Part shown: one piece after another, positions 49,820-62,266 of the stretch
Position numbering within the stretch: the stretch's first letter is position 1
How the letters are laid out: each line of letters starts with the position of its first letter
Source of the DNA: Candidatus Marinacidobacterales bacterium
Lineage (GTDB): Bacteria; Acidobacteriota; Vicinamibacteria; Marinacidobacterales; SMYC01
DNA length: 64,000 nucleotides
Assembly: GCA_965237955.1 (NCBI GenBank)
Contig: OZ250169.1
Location: 5,152,001-5,216,000, forward strand
Reading direction: 5' to 3'
Program-made: the position numbers and the translations under genes
Notes under the pieces: generated by a model
Database searches by the model: none
Told to the model about the DNA's origin: nothing
The model's input: only the letters and a program-made list of their open reading frames with translations

Positions 49820-51493
49820 GTGCTGTTCTCTCGCCTGATGGGGCAAGAGACCGAGTACGCGATACGATTCTCTCCCAAGCTCGGCCATCCCGGTAACGAC
49901 CGTATCTACGGTTTTCTAGCCCAGGCCATCGGACGCCACGTTCGCACCGAGCCGGGCCTCTATCCGGGCCGCCCGCAGATCTTCATGCAAAACGGCGGCG
50001 GCTTTCACTATGAGTATCGGCCTCATCGTGTCGGTGATGGGCTCATCGAAGGCGCGACCCCCGAATGCCGTGGTCCGGGTCAGCTACTCTTGTATCAGAA
50101 AGCGCAAGAGGCGTTGCTCATGAAGGTCATCCCCGCGGCGGAGACGAGCCTTAGCGAGCAGGGTTTTCCCGGGAAGCTGGGCCTTCTCAAAAACTGCCGC
50201 GACGCGCAGGGAAATGTCTACGGCGCGCAGGAGAGTTTTCAAGTGAGCGTCGCGAGTGGGCTTTCGCTCGTGGCCTACCGTTTAGGATTGGCCGGCTTGC
50301 TGCCGCTCCTCGCGCTCACGGTTGTGCTCGGCTGGCTATTCATTTTCGTCGCACTCGTAGCACTCGCCTTGGCGGTCGCTGGTGGCGTCGTTGTCGCGTT
50401 GCCCCCGTTTCGCCGGCGTCGATGGCTCGAGCGTCTCATGGATTTCGAAGAGAAAAACGTCAAGAGCGCGCTCGGTCGTATGCGTGACGCGACGACGTGG
50501 CCGTTCTTCGCTGGCTTGTGGCTCGTTACGAAGCTGTTCGCATTCCGTAAGGTTCGGCGGACCGCCATGGCCTTTTTCGTTTCTCGCGCTGCCTTCTCGG
50601 GCGCCGGGAGTGTCGAGGCCCATGGTCGGTTCTCGCTCTCCGAGAAAGGTGCCGCGATCAACAGGATTCTGCGGCGTTCCATGAGTCCGTCTGAGCGGCC
50701 GATTTTCGATACCGGCAACCTCATGAGGCCGGCGTTCGCGGCCGCTCATTTTCATCTCGATCCCGTCGCGGGCCTGTTCGCGCGCAAGCAACGCTTGCAG
50801 CTCGGGCTTGCAGACTCGAGCATGCTCGAAGAGGCCGAGTTTCTCAAAATGGGCACGACCGCTCTCGTGATCGACATGGCGGAAGCGGGATTTCTCTCCG
50901 ATGCCCCTCGACCGCTCGACCCCGTTGCCGCGCTGCACACACTCGTGAGCGACCCCGCGCTCGAGGCAGTCGTGAACACGAACCAGGGCGAGCTGACCGC
51001 GCTCGCGCTCCAACGCTTCTACCTCGATAAGTCCAAAGCGTTCGTGACGGAGTCGAAAGCGACGTCACTCGAAGCGTCGGAGGTCGTCAACCTCTGGGAC
51101 GAAGTGCTGAGTGCGCTCGAGGAGCGCAAGATGGACAAGCTCGTCGGCCGCGTCGATTGGGTCACGAAACGGTATCTCCTCGAAGCGTGTGGCGACGAAG
51201 GTGATGCCGCGATGCTGAAAACGATCGACCTGCGCTACCACGAGCTCGGCGAAGGTTATGCAGAGCAGTTTGCCAAGACCGGGAACGTTCACCGCCTTCT
51301 CGCACCGTCGGAAGTCGAGCGCGCGATCGAGGAGCCGCCGGAAGGTACCCCAGCCTATACGCGCGGCCGCTTCATTCGGTCGCGGGCAGCCAACTTGACA
51401 CCGGTGCGCATCTCGTGGGACTCGGCTTTGATTGGCGGGCGCATCAAAGGGAAGATCATCCGGTTTCCCGATCGGGGCGGTCCGACAGAGTAG
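49820..51493 (+). CDS. Divergent PafA/Dop (Pup ligase/depupylase) family protein with a transmembrane insertion
   Basis: [67 protein letters not shown]. Confidence 0.9.
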
Positions 51494-51506
51494 AATACGG
51501 GCACGC

Positions 51507-52589
51507 ATGGCAGGCAACAGTTTCGGTGAGCTTTTTCGGGTCACGACCGCGGGCGAAAGCCACGGACCAGGCTACGTCGTCATCATTGATGGCGTGCCGC
51601 CCGGTCTCGAGCTTGCAGAAAGCGACCTGACGCCCGACCTCGATCGCCGCCGTCCCGGTCAATCGAAGGTGACCACCCAGCGTCAAGAGGCCGACATACC
51701 CGTGATTCTGTCCGGCGTTTTCGAAGGCAAGACCACCGGCACATCCATTGCTATCTCCATCCAAAACCGCGACCAGCGTCCGAAGGACTACTCGGAGGTC
51801 AAGGAAAAGTATCGACCCGGCCATGCCGACTACACCTTCGACGCCAAGTACGGCACGCGAGATTACCGGGGCGGGGGACGCTCGAGCGCGCGTGAGACTT
51901 CGGTTCGCGTCGCTGCGGGGGCGGTGGCGAAGAAACTTCTACGGGAGCGCTACGGCGTCGCCGTTGTGGGCTTCGTGAAACAGATCGGCGACATCGTTGC
52001 CGACGTCCGTGAGCCCGAGAGCGTGACGCTCGAGGACGTCGAAGCCAACATCGTTCGCTGCCCCGACACAAAAGCGGCCGAGCGCATGATCGAGCTCATC
52101 GAGACGGTGCGCAAGGACAGTGATTCGATCGGCGGAGTCGCGGAGATCGTCGCCACCGGTGTTCCTCCGGGATGGGGCGAGCCCGTCTTCGACAAGCTCA
52201 AAGCCGACCTCGGCAAAGCGATGCTGAGTCTGCCAGCGGTGCTCGGCGTCGAGTACGGCGCCGGCTTCGGTGTCGCCACGATGAAAGGAAGCGAAGCCAA
52301 CGACGTCTTCACCAAAGACGGCGATCGCATCGTAACGCGGACGAATCGGCATGGCGGCATGCTCGGAGGCATTTCTTCAGGAATGCCTATCGTCGTGCGG
52401 TGCGCCGTCAAACCGACGAGTAGTCTTCCTAGAGAGCAAGAGACGGTGACGCGCGGCGGCGACCCTACGACAATCGCGACGAAAGGTCGCCACGACCCGT
52501 GCCTGCTCCCACGATTCGTCCCCATGGCCGAAGCGATGATGGCGATCACGCTCGCCGACCACGCCCTGAGGCAGAAAGCGCAGCGGTAG
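51507..52589 (+). CDS. aroC: Chorismate synthase
   Basis: [33 protein letters not shown]. Confidence 0.98.
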
Positions 52590-53052: not shown

Positions 53053-53861
53053 TCATCGCCGAGTCCCACCCGGACGACGAGGCGACCGGTTTCGAAGTCG
53101 ACGACCTCCGAGGCTGGATGTGGGCCGAAGTGCCTCGCGAGCAATAACCTCTCCCCGCTTGGGCCGCTTGGGCCGCTTGGGGAAGACTCCTGGGAACGAC
53201 TCTCTGTCTAGACGGAGTTGAAGTGTCGGTTGCGGTTCACGCACGCGGTCCGCTGAGCGACGGTAGCGGTCCATCTTGTCTTTGCCGAAGTCCAGCTCAG
53301 CCATGTAACCGTTATGCGTTTTGCAAGCGAGCCGAATATTTTCAGCGCTTCGATCGCCGCCGACGCCATAGGGCTCGTCGTGGTGGAACTCCACTCCCTC
53401 GCGCGCCGGGCAGCGCCTGCCGTCTTTGGTCTCATACGTGCATTGACCGCCGTCACGCTCCCATACGAAGCGTCTCACCGGGGCGGAGATGCCCCGCGCA
53501 CACCGGGCGACGTGTCGGCTTCTTCGAGACTCTTTCTCGTGTTTTTCGTCTTACCGAAACGCTTGGCTTCCAGCCGTTCGAGTTTCTCGCTCACGGCAGC
53601 TTCCATAACCGAAGCGAGGTCTACGCCAGGCATGAGCGCGGAGAGCCGCTCGATTTTGTCACGAAACTCGGCGCTCGCCGTGAACTGAACTTTATAACGC
53701 GCGGGGGCCAGCGGCTCGACGACCGCCAGCTTCTCAGGTGCTTTCGGAGCAGGAGCTGGCGGAGGGGCCTGACAATTCTCTCCGACGCTGTCTGGACCGG
53801 CTCCGTCTGAACGAGGCTCGGATTTAGACGCTCTGAGTTGGCGCCTGTCGGGTGTAAACAC
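53053..53861 (-). pseudogene. HNH endonuclease-domain protein; 5'-truncated, frameshift near 53490
   Basis: PLAPARYKVQFTAS; RRFVWERDGGQC, EFHH..P...GG, NIRLACKTHN. Confidence 0.82.
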
Positions 53862-54339: not shown

Positions 54340-57117
54340 AGACCTCTCCCATCCTGGTCACAAACTCGCCCGCTACGAGATTCTCGAGCCCATCGGCAAG
54401 GGCGGGGAGTTCGCTGAGAACGAAGAACGCCTAGTCCCCTGTATCAGAACAAACTAGATAAAGCAGAGCTTGCCGAAACCCTTCTAAGTGCATGAATCTT
54501 ATGAATCTTATGGGCTGGCGAAAAGCCTAACTTTGTATACTAATCAAAGATCCAGGGGACTAGCCCGATTCAAGCGAGAGGCCAAGGTTCTTGCGTCTTT
54601 GAACCATCCGAACATCGCTGCCATTCACGGGCTGGAGGAGTCCGAAGGTACACATTACCTCGTTCTCGAGCTTGTCCCGGGCGAGACTCTGGCCGAAAGG
54701 ATCTCACGCGGTCCCATTCCGGTTGAAGAAGCTATCGAGATCGCCACCAAGATCGCCGAAGCCCTGGAGGAGGCGCACGAACAAGGAATCGTTCACCGGG
54801 ATCTAAAACCCGCCAACATCAAGCAGACCGACGACGGCAAGATCAAGGTTCTGGACTTCGGTCTCGCCAAAGCTTTCGCCAAGGAATCGCCCGAGGCCGA
54901 CAGCTCGATGTCTCCCACGCTTACTAGAGATGCAACTCGGGTGGGCGTGATTCTCGGGACCGCGGCGTATATGAGTCCCGAGCAAGCCAAGGGAAAGCGT
55001 GTTGACAAGCGAACCGACGTGTGGGCGTTCGGTGCGGTCGTCTACGAGATGCTTACGGGAAAGCGGGCGTTCGCTGGTGAAGATGTTTCCGACACGCTCG
55101 CCGCTGTGCTACGAGCGGAGCCGGGCTTCGACGCGCTGCCCGCTGAGACGCCTGCCTCACTCCGGCGGGCGTTGAGGCTCTGCCTGACGAAAGACGTGAA
55201 GCAGCGCTTTCACGCCATGGGTGACGTGCGACTCATGTTGGAGGGTGCACTCGAGCCCGAGCAACCGCTCGGCCGAGCGGGCCCGTCACCACCGGCTCCA
55301 CCGGCGCGGGTCCGCACGGCGGCAGTGTTGCTGCTCGGTGTTGCGACGGGAGCGGCTGCGATTTGGTTCCTTTCTTCGCGCGAGCCTTCGCCGAAGCCGA
55401 TGGTCCGGCGGGCAGAGATCGTGCTGCCCCCATCGGAGAGGTTGTTCTATGGTGCGGGCATCGGGCGTCCCGTGATCGTGTCGCCCCAGGGGACGCATCT
55501 CGTGTACGCGGCGAGGAGAGAATCGTCTGTGCGCCAGCTCTTCGTTCGGCGTTTCGATACGGATCTCGCCACGCCTATCCCCGGAACCGAGAGAGCACTA
55601 CAGTTCTTCTTTTCCCCTGAAGGCGACTGGCTCGGTTTTTTCGCCGACGGTAAGCTCAAGAAGGTCGCACTCTCGGGAGATGTTCTCAAGGAGCTCTGCG
55701 ATGTAACCTATCCACTCGGCGGAGACTGGGGTCGCGACGAGGTCATCTACTTCGCGAGTAGTGCGTGGAGAGACGGAGAATTAGATCCATTGCTATCGGG
55801 TCTCTTTCGGATCCCGTCCGATGGGGGTGTCCCAGAGCAACTGGTGACGGCAGAAGGCGAGCATGCAGATGCTGCTCACCGGTGGCCGCACATTTTGCCG
55901 AAGGGTGACGGAGTCCTCTACACATCCTACGCGCGGGACACATTCTCATCCAACATCGTGTTTCAATCGTTGTTGACTGGAGAGAGCCGTGTCCTGATTG
56001 AAAACGGTGCCAACCCAGTCTATCTGCTGACTGGACACATTCTCTTCCGGCGAGACGACGCTCTTTTGGGGCAGCGCCTCTTGATGCCATCCGCTACCAG
56101 GTCAATGGCAATCCCGCTGAGGTGGCTGACGGGGTCTTAAGCCGTGGAGCGTTCGAATCCGGCTTCCACGTTTCGTTGGAAGGAACGCTGGTTTACGTGC
56201 GAGCTCAGGAGAATCCCGAAAGCGAGCTCGTGTGGGTGGATCGGCAGGGAGGGACGGAGCTCCTGCGCGACTCGAGGGCCGAGCATACTCCGCACCCTCG
56301 GCTCTCGCCGGAGGGGAGACGCGTTGCGGTGACCCGCGGCGGGCTCGGCGCTGATCCGCCGAGCATTTGGATTTACGAGATCGATAGAGGCATCTCGACA
56401 GAGCTGACATTATCGGACGCCGCTAGCTATCGGCCGCTTTGGACGCCGGACGGCAAGAGCATTGTCTACGGGCGCGACGCCACTGGCGGTGTTGACATTT
56501 ACATGACTCGCTCCGACGGGAGCGGGGAAGAGCACCAACTAACGTCGGGAGGGTATCGAGTCCCGACCTCCGTGTCGCCGGACGGCGCGTTCGCGTTCTT
56601 CCGCGAGATGGGACGCAGCTGGGATATCGGCATGGTGCGCCTCGACGGGTCGAGCGGCCCGGAAACGCTGGTCGCATCTGATTACGCCGAGCACACTCCT
56701 GTACTTTCGCCCGATGGGCGGTGGCCCGCCTACGTGTCCGACGAAAGCGGACGCGAGGAGATCTTCGTTCGCCCGTTCCCAGAACTCGAACCCACGACGC
56801 GTCTTTCAACGGAGGGCGGCGCGGAGCCCGCTTGGGCCAGAGGCGGAACTGAGCTCTTTTATAGGAACTTCACGAAGATGATGCTCGTCCCCATCCGAAC
56901 GGGGACCGAACTCCTGCCGGGGCGTCCTGCCGAACTCTTCGAGGGCTGGTATCAGATGGGAGACATTCAGTCGGCTCCCAATACGAACTACGACGTCTCT
57001 CTGGATGGGAAGCGGTTCCTCATGTTGCGGGATGTTGCCGGAGGTCACCTGGACTCACGTATTCAGGTAGTCTTCAACTGGCACGAAGAGCTGCTTAGGC
57101 TGGTTCCGGTGAATTGA
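54340..57117 (+). pseudogene. Hanks-type Ser/Thr kinase with TM and PD40/TolB-like propeller; N-lobe deletion, MITE insertion and frameshift near 56070
   Basis: YEILEPIGKGG, HRDLKPAN, DFGLAK, GTAAYMSPE; SPDG repeats; ends VFNWHEELLRLVPVN. Confidence 0.9.
54435..54559. mobile_element. 125-bp MITE with CTAG target duplication inside the kinase gene
   Basis: TIRs TCCCCTGTATC / GATCCAGGGGA; CTAG at 54431-54434 and 54560-54563; removal restores ERL-ARFKRE. Confidence 0.88.
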
Positions 57118-57174
57118 GTGGGGATGTGATGGACGCAGCTCGCGAAAGAACATGAAAAACATTTCCGGTTAAGG

Positions 57175-57360
57175 CAGACTGGTGCGGTCCGGAGCGGTGA
57201 GATCGACGAACCAGTGGGGCCGTTGAGACCGTTCAACTGGCTGATCCGGCGTGTGCGTTGGTAGAGCGAATAAGTAGGCGTCGCCGTGAGCGCTTTGTCC
57301 ACGGTGCGAGCCTGAGATCCTGATTAATGAAGTTGATTAGCACGCGCTCCGCTGCGGCGA
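57175..57360 (+). ncRNA. Putative IS110 bridge RNA
   Basis: Structured leader containing segments that match the right-flank target (CGAACCAGT, TTCAACTGG) and the element end (GATCCTG). Confidence 0.65.
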
Positions 57361-57372
57361 TGAGGAGGAGCG

Positions 57373-58651
57373 ATGCCAAACCGGATTGCTGGGATAGACG
57401 TTCACAAGAAGATGCTGGCGGTGGTGGTCGCCGACATCGCAGTAGAGGGCGAGTATAAGTTTTCGCGCCGGCGTGTGGGCACGAGACCGAGTGAGCTTCG
57501 GGCTCTGGCGGAGTGGCTGGTGGCCGAGGGGGTCGATGAAGTAGTGATGGAATCGACCGCGCAATATTGGCGCCCGGTGTGGGAGGCGTTGGAGCGGTCC
57601 TGGGCTCCGCAGTGCCGAGCTCGGCCGGGCGCGGGTGCGCAGTCGGGCAACTTGCATCTGGCGCAAGCAAAGTCGAATCGCGGCGCGCGGGGTCGGAAGC
57701 GGTATTTTCCGGATGCCGAACGATTGGTGAAGCGTTTGGTGGCGCAGGAGCTGACTCTAAGCTTCGTTCCCGAGCCGGAGCAGCGCCTGTGGCGAACGGT
57801 GATGCGCCGCAAGTACCAGTTCACGCGTAACCGGGTTCAGCTCCAAAACCGCCTAGAGTCGTTGCTGGAGGAAGCGCATCTAAAGTTGTCGAGCCTGGTG
57901 TCGGATCTTCTGGGGCTGAGTGCGCGGCGGATGTTGCAAGCCTTGGCGGACGGGGAAACGGAGCCGGCCCGCTTGGCGGAGTTGGCCGACCGTCGATTGC
58001 GTGCCACGCCCGAGCAGTTGTGCGATGCGCTCGGCGCGTGTGCCGATCTCAACCCCGTCTATCGGAAGCTCGTGCAAATGACGCTCGAGGAATTACGATT
58101 GCTCGAAGAGCAGAGCGCGCAACTCGATGAAGAGATGGCGCATCTGCTCGGCGAGCATCAAGCAGCTGTGCAACGACTCGCTGAAGTGCCTGGGCTCGGC
58201 GTGGATTCGGCGCAGCAGATCATCGCGGAAGTCGGGGCGAGCGCCGAGACGTTTCCGTCGGCCAAGCACCTCGCGTCCTGGGTGGGCGTGTGCCCCGGAG
58301 AGCACGAAAGCGCCGGCAAAAGCTACAGCCATCGCTCGCCCAAAGGCAGTCGGCCGATGCGCCGCCTCCTCAATCAAGCCGCCAACGCGGCCGTCAAGAC
58401 CAAAGGGAGTTTCTTCCAGCTCGTGTACCGGCGCTTGGTTCCACGCCTGGGGCACGCGCAAGCCATCTGGGCCGTTGCCCATCGGTTGTGTCGTTTAATC
58501 TGGAAGATTCTCCACCAGGGCGTTGACTATGAGGAACGTGGCCCCGACGTTAGCCGCGCGCGCTCCAAACGACGCATTGCCAAATATGATCCGCGACCTG
58601 CGCAAACTCGGATATCACATCGAGCCTTCTCTACGGGGAGATCCAGCATGA
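57373..58651 (+). CDS. IS110 DEDD recombinase/transposase; frameshift near 58585
   Basis: GIDVHK, VMESTAQYW, VPGLG, HESAGK; true tail MIRDLRKLGY ends at TGA 58651. Confidence 0.93.
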
Positions 58652-58670
58652 CGATAGATGTTTTTCGATC

Positions 58671-59360
58671 CTGGTTCGAAGAGTTGAAGCGCCTCGTCCC
58701 GACCGACAACTGACATGCCCCTCACCCCGGAACCAAGCTCGGCACCTACGAGATCATCGCCGCCATCGGCGCAGGTGGAATGGAGAAGTCTACCGAGCCA
58801 GCGACACCAAGCTCGACCGAGACGTTGCAATCAAAGTCCTTCCCGAGGAGTTCGCCCAAGACAAGGAGCGCCTTGCCAGGTTCGAGCGGGAGGCCAAGCT
58901 CCTGGCGCAGCTGAACCATTCGAACATCGCCACGCTCCATGGGCTCGAAGAGCACGAAGGCCAGCAGTTCCTGGTGATGGAGCTCGTCGAGGGGGAGATC
59001 TTGGCGGAGCGGATTGCGCAGGGTCCGATCCCCGTCGACGAAGCGATCCCGCTCTTCATCCAGATTGCCGAAGGCCTCGAAGCGGCTCATGACAAGGGAA
59101 TCATTCATCGAGACCTGAAGCCGGCGAACATCAAGATCGGTCCAGACGGCAAGCCGAAGATTCTGGACTTCGGTTTGGCGAAGGCGCTGGAAGGGGACGA
59201 AGGTAGTGATCCGTCGGAGTCGCCCACGATGACAGCCGCCCCCACGCGGGCGGGTGTGATCATGGGCACGGCGGTGTACATGTCGCCGGAGCAAGCCCGG
59301 GGCAAGCCAGTCGATAGGCGGGCTGACATCTGGTCGTTTGGCGTCGTGCTCTTCGAGATC
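58671..59360 (+). pseudogene. Orphan kinase 3' end (WFEELKRLVPTDN*) followed by a frameshifted, truncated Ser/Thr kinase (ATG 58715)
   Basis: GTYEIIAAIGAGG, DVAIKVLPEE, HRDLKPAN, DFGLAK; homology stops after DIWSFGVVLFE. Confidence 0.88.
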
Positions 59361-59513
59361 TCGCCTCGGCAACTACGAGGTCCTCTCCGACCTGGGCGCT
59401 GGCGCGCTGAGACCACCCGGCGATCGCCTCCGCCGCCGCATGAACTTCTCCGAGCGCTAAAGCGCAAGCGGTCGGAGCCTGAAAGAAATCCCGGGGTAGG
59501 TGATACTTGGCGA

Positions 59514-59897
59514 CTAGCGATCAGGCGGGGTGAAGGCTGTTGAATCGAGTATGGTTCGGAGTGTCTCGCGCTTGCCCTCCGACAGTCCCGTGAACTCGAT
59601 TCCACAAAGCGCCTGGCTGCCATCCGCCTTGAGCGGTTGGCTCCAGACTACGCGCCCGCTCGCTTCCAGCATCTCTCCGTCGGAAAAACTCAGCATCATC
59701 TGGATGCCACGCCGAGTGTATACCTCACCCGTCTGCACACACGCGCCGCCCTCGGAGATGTTGGTCACGACCCCGTACGCGAACGGGAGGCCGTGCTCTA
59801 GGACGGCAACGGTTACTGATTGAGCTGGTACAAGGCGCGGTGATCTGCGAGCAGGAGCGAAGGGTTCGAGCGATTTGGGTTTCTTTGCCCCCTGCAT
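59514..59897 (-). CDS. PilZ domain protein
   Basis: RRSPR and NISEGG motifs. Confidence 0.85.
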   Translation of the reverse strand: MQGAKKPKSLEPFAPARRSPRLVPAQSVTVAVLEHGLPFAYGVVTNISEGGACVQTGEVYTRRGIQMMLSFSDGEMLEASGRVVWSQPLKADGSQALCGIEFTGLSEGKRETLRTILDSTAFTPPDR

Positions 59898-60398
59898 GAT
59901 GAATCCCCCAAAGCCTGTGCCCTGGGGGCAGGATGCGGCATTTGATGTACGTTAGAAGCAAACACCATGCTAGGAGTTGGCGCCATCGCTTGCCCGCGTC
60001 GGAGGTGGCTTGTTTGCTGTCGGATACGTCGATGCAGAAAGTATTGTGGTATCCGTCCCGTGGGTAGTTCCCAACAATACCGTGTCGCCACGTAGCATTG
60101 CATGCCCAAGATGGTCATCCGGCGTCGGCGATGTGTACCTCACCATGTGTCGAAGTGGGGCACTGCCAAGTCGCGGCTGACGAAGAAGACACGTCTTTCG
60201 CAGACTGGACGCAGGGCTGCTCCAACCCGAGCCGTCCCTCGAAGTCGAATGTTAGCGGCGGGCGTAAATTGCACACTTATGGCGGACGAAAATTGCACAC
60301 TCGGCCATCCGTAAAAGGAGGCCGTTGTCGTGTGTCTGGAGTGCCAGACATGACGGCGCGCCTTCAATCAGAATGGCGTTTCCGGAGTGGAGGCGCCG

Positions 60399-61442
60399 AT
60401 GTACGGAAGGGAGAAACGAGTGTTACTACGAGAGTATTTGGAGCAGGGAATCAAGAAGGCGGCGCTAGCAGACAAGCTAGGAATCAGCCGCCGAACGGTC
60501 CACCACTGGATAAAGACGGGTCAACTGGACCGAGAGTTGGACGAGGAAACGGTGCGCTACAAGAAGCGTCCGCGGATCGAGCGCAGGATCGACCCGTACC
60601 GGGAGATCCTTCATTCGCGCCTGCACGAGTTCCCGGAGCTGAGTTCAGTACGCCTGCATGATGAGATCCGTGCCGCGGGCTATGAAGGCGGCTACACGCA
60701 GGTCAAGGAGTACGTGCGGCAGATTCGCCCACAGCCACCGGCGGAGCCGCTGGTGCGTTTCGAGACCCCACCAGGCCACCAAGCTCAGGTCGATTTTGCA
60801 CACTTTCGTTTGCCATGGGGTCGTCGGTGGGCACTTCTCGTGGTGCTCGGATACTCGAGGCTGCTATGGCTTCGGTTTTTCAAGCGACAGGACATGCGGA
60901 CGTTGTTCGCGGGGCTTGAGCAGGCCTTCCTATTTTTTGGAGGAGTTCCCAAAGAGCTCCTTTTTGACCAGATGCGTTCGGTCATCGTCGAGGATCACCG
61001 CCGGGAAGGTGGCCCTCTCGTTGAGAACCCAGAGTTCGTCCGCTTCGCCCACCACTGGGAGTTTCGAACAAGAGCGTGTCGCCCGTATCGGGCGAAGACC
61101 AAGGGCAAAGTGGAAAGGCCAATCCGCTATGTGAGAGGAAGCTTCTTCTACGGTCGCCACTTTATCAACGATGACGACCTCGATGCTCAGCTCGAGCGTT
61201 GGCTGAGTGACGTCGCCAACGTCCGACTCCATCGCACAACCAACGAACGACCGATAGAACGATTCGCGCGCGATGAAAGGGCCACTCTGAGACCGCTCGT
61301 TGAGCGGCCATATCGCTCTCTTGTACTGCCAAACCAACCCGCGAGAAGAACTCCAAAAGCCTGCTTAACCACACTGCCTTCGATGGATGTCGAGCATCGT
61401 CCCCTCGAAGTCTACACGCGGCTCGTTGGAGGTGGACAATGA
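60399..61442 (+). CDS. istA: IS21 transposase IstA
   Basis: RFETPPGHQAQVDF, GGVPKELLFDQM, KTKGKVER. Confidence 0.96.
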   Translation: MYGREKRVLLREYLEQGIKKAALADKLGISRRTVHHWIKTGQLDRELDEETVRYKKRPRIERRIDPYREILHSRLHEFPELSSVRLHDEIRAAGYEGGYTQVKEYVRQIRPQPPAEPLVRFETPPGHQAQVDFAHFRLPWGRRWALLVVLGYSRLLWLRFFKRQDMRTLFAGLEQAFLFFGGVPKELLFDQMRSVIVEDHRREGGPLVENPEFVRFAHHWEFRTRACRPYRAKTKGKVERPIRYVRGSFFYGRHFINDDDLDAQLERWLSDVANVRLHRTTNERPIERFARDERATLRPLVERPYRSLVLPNQPARRTPKACLTTLPSMDVEHRPLEVYTRLVGGGQ

Positions 61443-62266
61443 AGGCGAGCACAATATCGCGACGTGAGCAGATCCGTACGATGCTGGCCGACCTAAAGAT
61501 GCCTGGCGCGCTCGAAGCTGTCGACCGCGTACTATCTGATGCCGATGGCGGTGCGGTCACAACGGCGGAGGCCATCGAGAACCTTCTTGGAGCGCAGATC
61601 ACGTTGAGAAACAACCGTCGTCTCCAAGCGGCGATGCGCTCCTCACGACTCCCCGCGGTCAAAACAATCGATGAGTTCGATTTTTCGTTCCAGCCATCGA
61701 TCAAACGCGAGCAGATTGAGAACCTTCACGAGCTCGGGTTCGTTGAACGTAAGGAGAACGTCGTCTTATTGGGACCTACTGGTGTGGGCAAAACTCATCT
61801 TGCCATCGCCGCTGCCCAGAATGGACGGCGCGTCTATTACGGCACCCTGGCTGAGCTCATCACCTCCCTCGAAGAGGCTCGTGACGCGGGCCGCCTCACT
61901 CGTCGACTCGCGGTTCTCAGTTATCCGTCACTGCTTGTTGTCGATGAAATCGGATACCTACCCGTCACCCAGACCGGCGCGGTGCTTTTTTTCCAGCTCA
62001 TAAGTAGGCGATACGAGCGCGCTTCGACCGTGCTCACCTCTAACAAAAGTTTCGAGGAATGGGGCGAGATCCTTGGCGACGAAGTCATGGCCGCCGCTCT
62101 CATCGACCGCATTCTGCACCACTGCCACCTCGTCAACATCCGAGGAAACAGTTACCGCATGAGAGAGCACTCCGAACTGTGGCGAGCGCTCCATCCGGCG
62201 GGTTCGGACGAACCTCACCCGCCGGCTAAATCTCATAGGAAATACACGGAGGCGACGGCGTCATAG
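61439..62266 (+). CDS. istB: IS21 helper ATPase IstB
   Basis: GPTGVGKT Walker A, VVDEIGY, DRILHH, GNSYR. Confidence 0.96.
   Translation: MKASTISRREQIRTMLADLKMPGALEAVDRVLSDADGGAVTTAEAIENLLGAQITLRNNRRLQAAMRSSRLPAVKTIDEFDFSFQPSIKREQIENLHELGFVERKENVVLLGPTGVGKTHLAIAAAQNGRRVYYGTLAELITSLEEARDAGRLTRRLAVLSYPSLLVVDEIGYLPVTQTGAVLFFQLISRRYERASTVLTSNKSFEEWGEILGDEVMAAALIDRILHHCHLVNIRGNSYRMREHSELWRALHPAGSDEPHPPAKSHRKYTEATAS

Follow-up and report, generated by a model that had tools for sequence, protein, structure and literature searches.

We describe an IS110-family element that probably carries a bridge RNA aimed at the Asn-Trp codons near the 3' ends of Ser/Thr kinase-PD40 genes, and whose first 39 bases encode an in-frame replacement for the displaced C-terminus, with which the kinase protein would stay complete after insertion. 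The element lies in a stretch of 64,000 nucleotides (the window), where it is inserted at a TG core inside a Trp codon, with the original gene end orphaned on its right and the new tail in frame on its left. At the level of sequence, the tail restores both the reading frame and the conserved residues of the interrupted kinase. An earlier note on this DNA recognized the element and its likely guides but overlooked this apparent element-supplied C-terminus. With less assurance, we also favor a broader reading, that the element belongs to a widespread Acidobacteriota clade of RNA-guided insertion sequences with self-repairing insertion. Here, a codon-tolerant guide would parasitize an expanded kinase family, the tail would form a generic, selected C-terminal helix, and the donor loop would read the right end only, with the target loop defining the left end. 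The features on which these readings draw are as follows:

54488–57078, + strand: Ser/Thr kinase-PD40 gene of the host, as far as the Asn codon in VFN/W (Pkinase E 1e-41, PD40 E 1.6e-14).
57079–57080, + strand: left junction core, most likely TG, with which the Trp codon opens; both junctions have CTGG in common.
57079–57117, + strand: putative element-borne replacement C-terminus, WHEELLRLVPVN and a stop, 39 bases in frame with the host gene.
57154–57162, + strand: sub-terminal inverted repeat on the left, GAAAAACAT, set 75 bp in from the element's left end.
57186–57357, + strand: predicted bridge RNA, with a closing stem, a target hairpin (57198–57248) and a donor hairpin (57249–57347) in the consensus fold.
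57205–57213, + strand: target guide 1 slot (GACGAACCA), reverse complement of the core and right flank; about 5 bases beyond the core covary.
57233–57241, + strand: target guide 2 (TCAACTG) and the handshake dinucleotide GC (57240–57241), which matches the first two element bases after the core.
57265–57273, + strand: first donor guide slot (AGCGAATAA), nearly invariant and without a match to the left end.
57314–57322, + strand: second donor guide (GAGATCCTG), matching the right end GATCC-TG.
57373–58651, + strand: IS110-family DEDD recombinase gene (PF01548, PF02371; NF033542 at 211 bits, cut-off 140).
58658–58666, + strand: sub-terminal inverted repeat on the right, ATGTTTTTC, with 5 bp separating it from the core that follows.
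58672–58713, + strand: right junction core TG (58672–58673) and the displaced, orphaned original host end, WFEELKRLVPTDN and a stop.

The element spans 57079–58671 (~1.59 kb), an extent given by the start shared among copies, the right junctions, and a step in sequencing depth at 57079. Ten copies are present in the genome at >99% identity, and the sequence identical among them starts inside the apparent 3' end of the upstream kinase gene. All eight copies whose left end is intact read CAAC-TG-GCACGAAG there, through WHEELLRLVPVN and its stop, behind six different upstream sequences, four of which are kinase-PD40 ends according to an HMM built from the host part only. At the right end, seven of the ten copies meet host DNA and three are tandem joins; six of the seven host flanks are tails reading WFxELxRLVP, and the flank in the window is a kinase-gene 3' end, as the earlier note had stated. 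A repeat contig from public run X2, which may be the source of the assembly, likewise begins at 57079, with a depth of 185 vs. 18 for the flank. The start at 57152 that had been proposed therefore has to move to 57079, and the supposed neighboring kinase end at 57073 becomes the element's own left junction (57073–57081). Rejoining the flanks at five sites recovered 13, 12, 11, 10, and 10 positions of the 13-bp target, with all 13 matched at the window copy. Beyond the short shared core there are no terminal repeats or target duplication, and the target is specific, as expected for IS110. Searches of eight public runs found neither a circle joint nor an empty-site joint, and the element was barely covered in the raw-read run X24.

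The core shared by both junctions is most likely TG (57079–57080 and 58672–58673), because guide 1 finishes with CA and one variable base, TG closes 82 of 95 right ends, and the joins of right end to left end in tandem copies share TG. The alternative core CT, which had been suggested earlier, was rejected on the same grounds of guide 1 and tandem joins, and because relatives share only G or TG at both junctions.

Some copies depart from the simple arrangement. The array at C1:5882279–5889048 (L004) holds four copies, three of them extended on the left by ~140 bp of additional host DNA and one without its first 51 bp. Its outer flanks come from different loci, non-kinase on the left and an orphan kinase end on the right, which suggests rearrangement between copies. 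The copy at C1:6927310–6928634 is interrupted at the recombinase start codon by other sequence and retains only a right junction, with the orphan end WFEELKRLVPAP and a stop. At C1:5372287–5373887, the copy occupies a site without an HMM-detectable kinase end, and its right flank (WSQGLDRRVPRSQ and a stop) is either a degenerate tail or an off-target site.

The genome contains 62 kinase-domain loci, among which near-perfect empty sites persist (12 of 13 positions at C1:5574931 and 4436733). The host gene in the window is split in this assembly into two frames (54488–56140 and 56122 onward), and many host genes in the assembly have broken frames, both with and without the element. Directly after the orphan tail, a second kinase gene begins (58715–59543, Pkinase) that is frameshifted and appears truncated. 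On the minus strand, 59514–59897 encodes a PilZ-domain protein, and 53053–53861 holds two overlapping ORFs with no Pfam match at E 0.001, the second of which we take to have an HNH-like motif. Two ORFs at 60387–62266 presumably correspond to IS21-family istA and istB, which their translations resemble, and 51432–52589 (+) we assume to be a likely chorismate synthase gene. Several other multi-copy IS110 families occur in the genome at 25–30% identity.

The only gene within the element encodes the IS110 recombinase, with no tyrosine or serine integrase. Both domains of the family, the DEDD RuvC-like domain and the Transposase_20 domain, are present, and alignment to ISCro4 places the catalytic DEDD residues and the Tnp serine at D9, E60, D111, D114, and S313 in P0001. 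The protein is 425 aa long in 8 of 10 copies, and its best plasmid matches reach 35–36.5% identity. Alone among the ten copies, the window copy carries D111Y (57703); it also has an extra A at 58582, from which a 446-aa ORF reaching 58713 results. Because this extra A is missing from all four public runs compared, it is an assembly error or private to the strain.

Two 9-mers had been singled out in the earlier note, and both are present, CGAACCAGT at 57207 and TTCAACTGG at 57232 and again at 57073. Their paired pattern occurs once in the window and in none of 100 shuffles, and a 9-mer from each strand of the 13-bp target was found in 0 of 200,000 mononucleotide shuffles of the leader. These 9-mers are the predicted target guides of a bridge-like RNA and covary with the flanks over 44 distinct guides, which, together with the WFxELxRLVP right flanks, upholds the proposal that the leader is programmed against the NW(F) codons of kinase-PD40 gene ends. 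Their limits shift slightly: the last two bases of CGAACCAGT fall outside the covarying guide, and the last G of TTCAACTGG is a handshake base.

Relatives were drawn from a protein scan, which returned 79 related loci (most of them in Acidobacteriota), and from a metagenome pattern scan, which fixed AAY-TGG in guide 2 and yielded 102 matches, spread over 101 loci, with an NW-type guide. A pattern search of 400 phylum genomes matched only the source genome (1 of 401). Guide 1 agreed with right flanks at 4.21 of 7 positions over 44 distinct guides (null 2.15 ± 0.18, 0 of 10,000 permutations), with per-position matches of 0.89, 0.78, 0.70, 0.63, 0.59, 0.35, and 0.27; 19 loci had no loop match and 69 of 164 loops no readable right end. 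In guide 2, the one informative position (free position 3) matched the host in 66 of 80 cases (null 38.8, maximum 55), and position 1, the first T of TTCAACTGG, did not covary with hosts (7 of 80, null 7.0). Of 70 distinct elements, 58 have a handshake that matches the first two post-core element bases (null 25.8, maximum 41), and 12 have one that mismatches the tail. The target loop thus covaries with both target arms, and the handshake reads the donor, as in IS621. Because the handshake covaries with the first bases of the tail, the tail is identified as the donor end independently of copy number. These permutation tests overstate significance, as the sequences are related rather than independent.

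Position 6 of guide 2 corresponds to the Asn wobble position. In the NW-guide clade it is U in 100 of 108 loops, and hosts have AAC in 71 of 80 cases; a G-U wobble here would let one guide read both Asn codons. The window guide has C at this position, and the four AAT-TGG-TTC paralogue ends in the genome are empty.

Folding was among the checks put forward in the earlier note. The consensus of 133 distinct leaders predicts a closing stem and two hairpins with internal loops, but a single leader was only as stable as its shuffles (z 0.0). Rfam returned no matches for the leader, and a sigma-70 promoter and terminator scan of 56950–57420 found none on either strand. RNA-library contigs span the leader at low depth and carry no strand or end information. 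One of them, from run X15 (window-equivalent 57064–57352), runs from the host kinase gene through the tail into the leader at a depth of 5.7 and may be DNA or read-through.

The donor loop appears to pair with one end only. Its second guide tracks the right end in relatives (GATCCT, GACCCT, GAGCCT, and GACCTT), by inspection and without a permutation test. In IS621, both donor arms are paired by the donor loop; here, left-end starts vary yet the first slot is almost invariant, and no partner for AGCGAATAA was found by inspection or by mutual information within the RNA. A 4-base complement of this slot to the invariant TTCG of the right end was too short to count, and GTCCAC at 57298 was rejected as a first donor guide since it sits in a variable hairpin. 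Inverted repeats of 5–12 bp occur in 73 of 75 distinct pairs, and their positions 5–11 covary (3.87 vs. 3.23 ± 0.11, maximum 3.6). Right ends also join other TG sites: in the C1:5.88 Mb array these lie 142 bp upstream of the left end and 51 bp within it, and in L070 ~50 bp upstream. Such joins indicate that the left partner is loose.

The replacement tail recurs in relatives sharing 69–100% recombinase identity. An AAY-TGG junction lies upstream of the guide loop in 91 of 108 loops, or 84 of the 87 with at least 170 bases upstream; 14 of the 17 loops without a junction have <170 bases upstream. Tails are 12 aa long in 77 of these 91 cases, 7 aa in nine, 11 aa in four, and 20 aa in one, and they comprise 37 peptides and 58 DNA sequences, with seven groups sharing the first 45 bases behind different hosts. 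Across 50 distinct 12-aa tails, W1 (by the definition of the junction), E4, L5, V9, P10, and the stop are invariant, while two to four codons are used at each of E4, L5, V9, and P10, along with three stop codons. The pN/pS ratio of the tail is 0.39–0.52 overall and 0.23–0.44 for codons 4–12. The first stop falls after 7–14 codons in the host frame in 75 of 76 distinct left ends, compared with 7 and 4 in the other frames.

The genes upstream of these tails resemble the host gene in the window. Pfam was run on 24 of 27 upstream in-frame ORFs (omitting L007, L170, and L178), of which 18 matched PD40 and 7 also Pkinase. The L105 host gene provides an unbroken 987-aa frame that ends in the element's tail, and in an AlphaFold model of this protein, the tail forms an ordered helix after the last propeller strand (pLDDT ~90); Foldseek of the host-protein model returned generic propellers only. 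Right flanks in the clade (n = 44) comprise 30 long family tails, 9 short ones (some doubtful), and 5 others. An element's guide 1 matches its own tail less well than its host flank (2.82 vs. 4.45 of 7, n = 40).

The tail also appears to rebuild a target for kin elements. In L134, L148, L036, and L057, elements are stacked into the left junction of a relative, and the right flank in L134 and L148 is the left end of another element. Two basal relatives that the pattern missed, L063 and L074, are also tail-bearing, and relatives with short left ends and other targets have no tail. One sister group (L049, L057, L058, L070, L081, L088, L097–L099, L104, L106, L033, and L080) targets a conserved repeat ending in GATTTCCGCAAC followed by TG, possibly the end of another mobile element, and most of its left ends start TGGTT, the same as the first bases of the target's right half. 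Tail-bearing elements were basal and tail-less ones nested in a tentative tree (support 82; FastTree only, with a distant outgroup, built from 115 distinct sequences of 166 loci with a match).

From these patterns we propose a mechanism. The target loop would read ~5 + 2 + 5 bases in an IS1111-like order, with the handshake reading the tail's first two bases, as their covariation suggests, and a + strand bridge RNA may direct IS621-like chemistry on a flipped site. If the donor loop reads only the right end, the left end would be set by target guide 2, the core, and the handshake, which match the left junction over 10 bases. Left-end sequence would then be free to change and could acquire host DNA; the tail likely arose from such DNA. 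A boundary shift could capture a kinase end in this manner, and selection would presumably keep the tail, since insertion into a large paralogue family would become nearly harmless. The looseness of the left partner fits with half-match recombination and boundary growth.

Several other explanations for the tail and its guides were weighed. The tail could be a neutral by-product of the loose left boundary, repeatedly recaptured or gene-converted from paralogues in the host, its conservation reflecting selection on host genes. Such an origin agrees with the joining of right ends to other TG sites, with native WHEEL ends in this genome (C1:1421592 and 4072010), and with several tail types (WQAALG, WHPERGK, and WQETLKK), and recapturing host ends again and again could keep pN/pS low without selection on the element. 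Yet tails are more uniform than host ends (12 aa in 77 of 91 vs. 17 of 29), a single tail peptide extends throughout a whole recombinase branch, and the handshake has co-changed with the tail. Moreover, pS exceeded pN (0.20 vs. 0.078) among pairs with at least 90% recombinase identity (17 non-independent pairs), and we consider neutral hitchhiking unlikely. It is more improbable still that the tail acts as DNA or RNA, or as a stop signal keeping host ribosomes off the bridge RNA, with no functional protein end rebuilt. The nearly invariant stop position speaks for such a role, as do the co-orientation of element and host gene and the X15 contig across gene, tail, and leader, which may be DNA. 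However, it does not account for four invariant residues (E4, L5, V9, and P10) whose codons vary, with differences mostly at third positions (3582, 3590, and 6540), and short-left-end relatives manage without a tail.

We give next to no credence to WHEELLRLVPVN as the true end of the upstream kinase gene, with the element starting near 57152. The frame is continuous and the peptide resembles native ends, but the DNA is identical in eight of eight copies, including at sites without an upstream kinase gene, and both the orphan tails on the right and the depth step at 57079 contradict a native end. The guide order is indeed that of the strand opposite the transposase, as the earlier note inferred, the loop's 5' side being the complement of the top strand. 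A guide RNA transcribed from that opposite strand would make the order conventional, and the lack of a promoter on either strand in the scan and of strand information in the RNA-library contigs leaves room for it. Still, the IS621 arrangement, in which the core forms the 3' end of each guide, guide 2 is followed by the handshake, and the target loop comes ahead of the donor loop, is obtained only on the + strand, so transcription from the other strand seems extremely improbable.

A replacement C-terminus carried by the element and kept by selection remains our preferred reading. If true, the element would be the first IS110 to carry an attP-like replacement coding sequence, and it would represent a natural bridge system in which free sequence makes up the left donor arm. 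No IS110 with a replacement coding end was described in the literature searched, which included few subscription journals and neither supplements nor ISfinder. By this route, a minimal RNA-guided transposon could inhabit protein-coding genes yet spare them from destruction; phage and island integrases are known to use this strategy. The element would also offer a natural case for how bridge recombinases define their ends, as one donor arm appears unread and the handshake co-evolves with a coding tail. Should the left arm be free, this subgroup becomes a candidate tool for replacing or tagging, in frame, the C-termini of chosen genes. As a caution, such left ends are bound to be annotated as host gene, which would misplace the element boundary.

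The element, a member of the IS110 family, would work like IS621, yet it departs from IS621 in two features and from IS1111 in two. As described in the available portions of the IS621 and ISCro4 reports (PMC11208160, PMC11208158), those systems likewise combine a DEDD plus Tnp recombinase with a left-end RNA whose target loop precedes its donor loop, a 2-nt core, and handshake bases reading the donor; handshake pairing with the donor is already known for IS621 (PMC11208158). By contrast with these systems, as far as those portions describe them, the guide order here is opposite relative to the transposase, TG is the most likely core, a match exists to a single donor arm, inverted repeats of 5–12 bp are present, and the left end encodes a host protein tail. 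In transposase orientation, the 5' side of each IS621 loop matches the left arm, whereas here it complements the core and right flank. The 425-aa recombinase shows distant similarity to that of ISCro4 (E 5e-7).

The reversed guide order is known from IS1111 seekRNAs (PMC11187229), and in the parts of that report covering ISEc11, ISKpn4, and ISPa11, a complement of the top strand precedes a match to the bottom strand, as it does here. IS1111 elements are there described with a downstream non-coding region, a protein of 330–350 aa, and inverted repeats of 11–13 bp, set 7 bp in from the left end and 3 bp in from the right. Here, by contrast, the non-coding region is upstream (a 294-bp leader, with ~20 bp downstream), the protein has 425 aa, and the 9-bp repeats are set 75 bp in from the left end and 5 bp ahead of the right core. 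The same source describes ISEc21, an IS110 element whose upstream RNA is aimed at a conserved coding motif, the codons around the second D of IS3-family transposases. Both elements thus have an upstream RNA targeting a coding motif common to a gene family, but ISEc21 inserts inside the catalytic domain and has the IS110 guide order, and the portions of PMC11187229 that treat it describe no replacement sequence. Coding-motif targeting and reversed guide order are therefore already known and are not new here.

For integrases directed at tRNA or protein genes, attP as a rule includes a replacement sequence, according to the accessible part of PMC10111431. The resemblance to attP replacement at tRNA genes and icd lies in an element-borne substitute gene end that displaces the old one and, in those systems, keeps the target gene functional, as it would here. 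Those systems, as that part presents them, use a tyrosine integrase at a single protein-specified site, whereas a minimal RNA-guided insertion sequence here would supply one generic tail to many paralogues. Studies of half-match recombination and expanded IS110 elements (10.64898/2026.08.31.748434, 10.64898/2026.08.14.744561) report, in the sections available, that one donor arm suffices, that boundaries shift and incorporate adjacent DNA, and that tandem units form, all as seen or proposed here. The looseness of the left partner also fits copy-out top-strand transposition as outlined in the available text of 10.1101/2025.10.25.684509. In the accessible text of 10.64898/2026.08.14.744561, the wording in-frame, restoring, C-terminal, stop codon, or kinase does not occur, and the outcomes in the available sections of both half-match papers are off-target events or cargo gain. 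By contrast, one-sided donor matching appears to be the normal state of the whole subgroup described here, and the captured DNA appears to repair the target.
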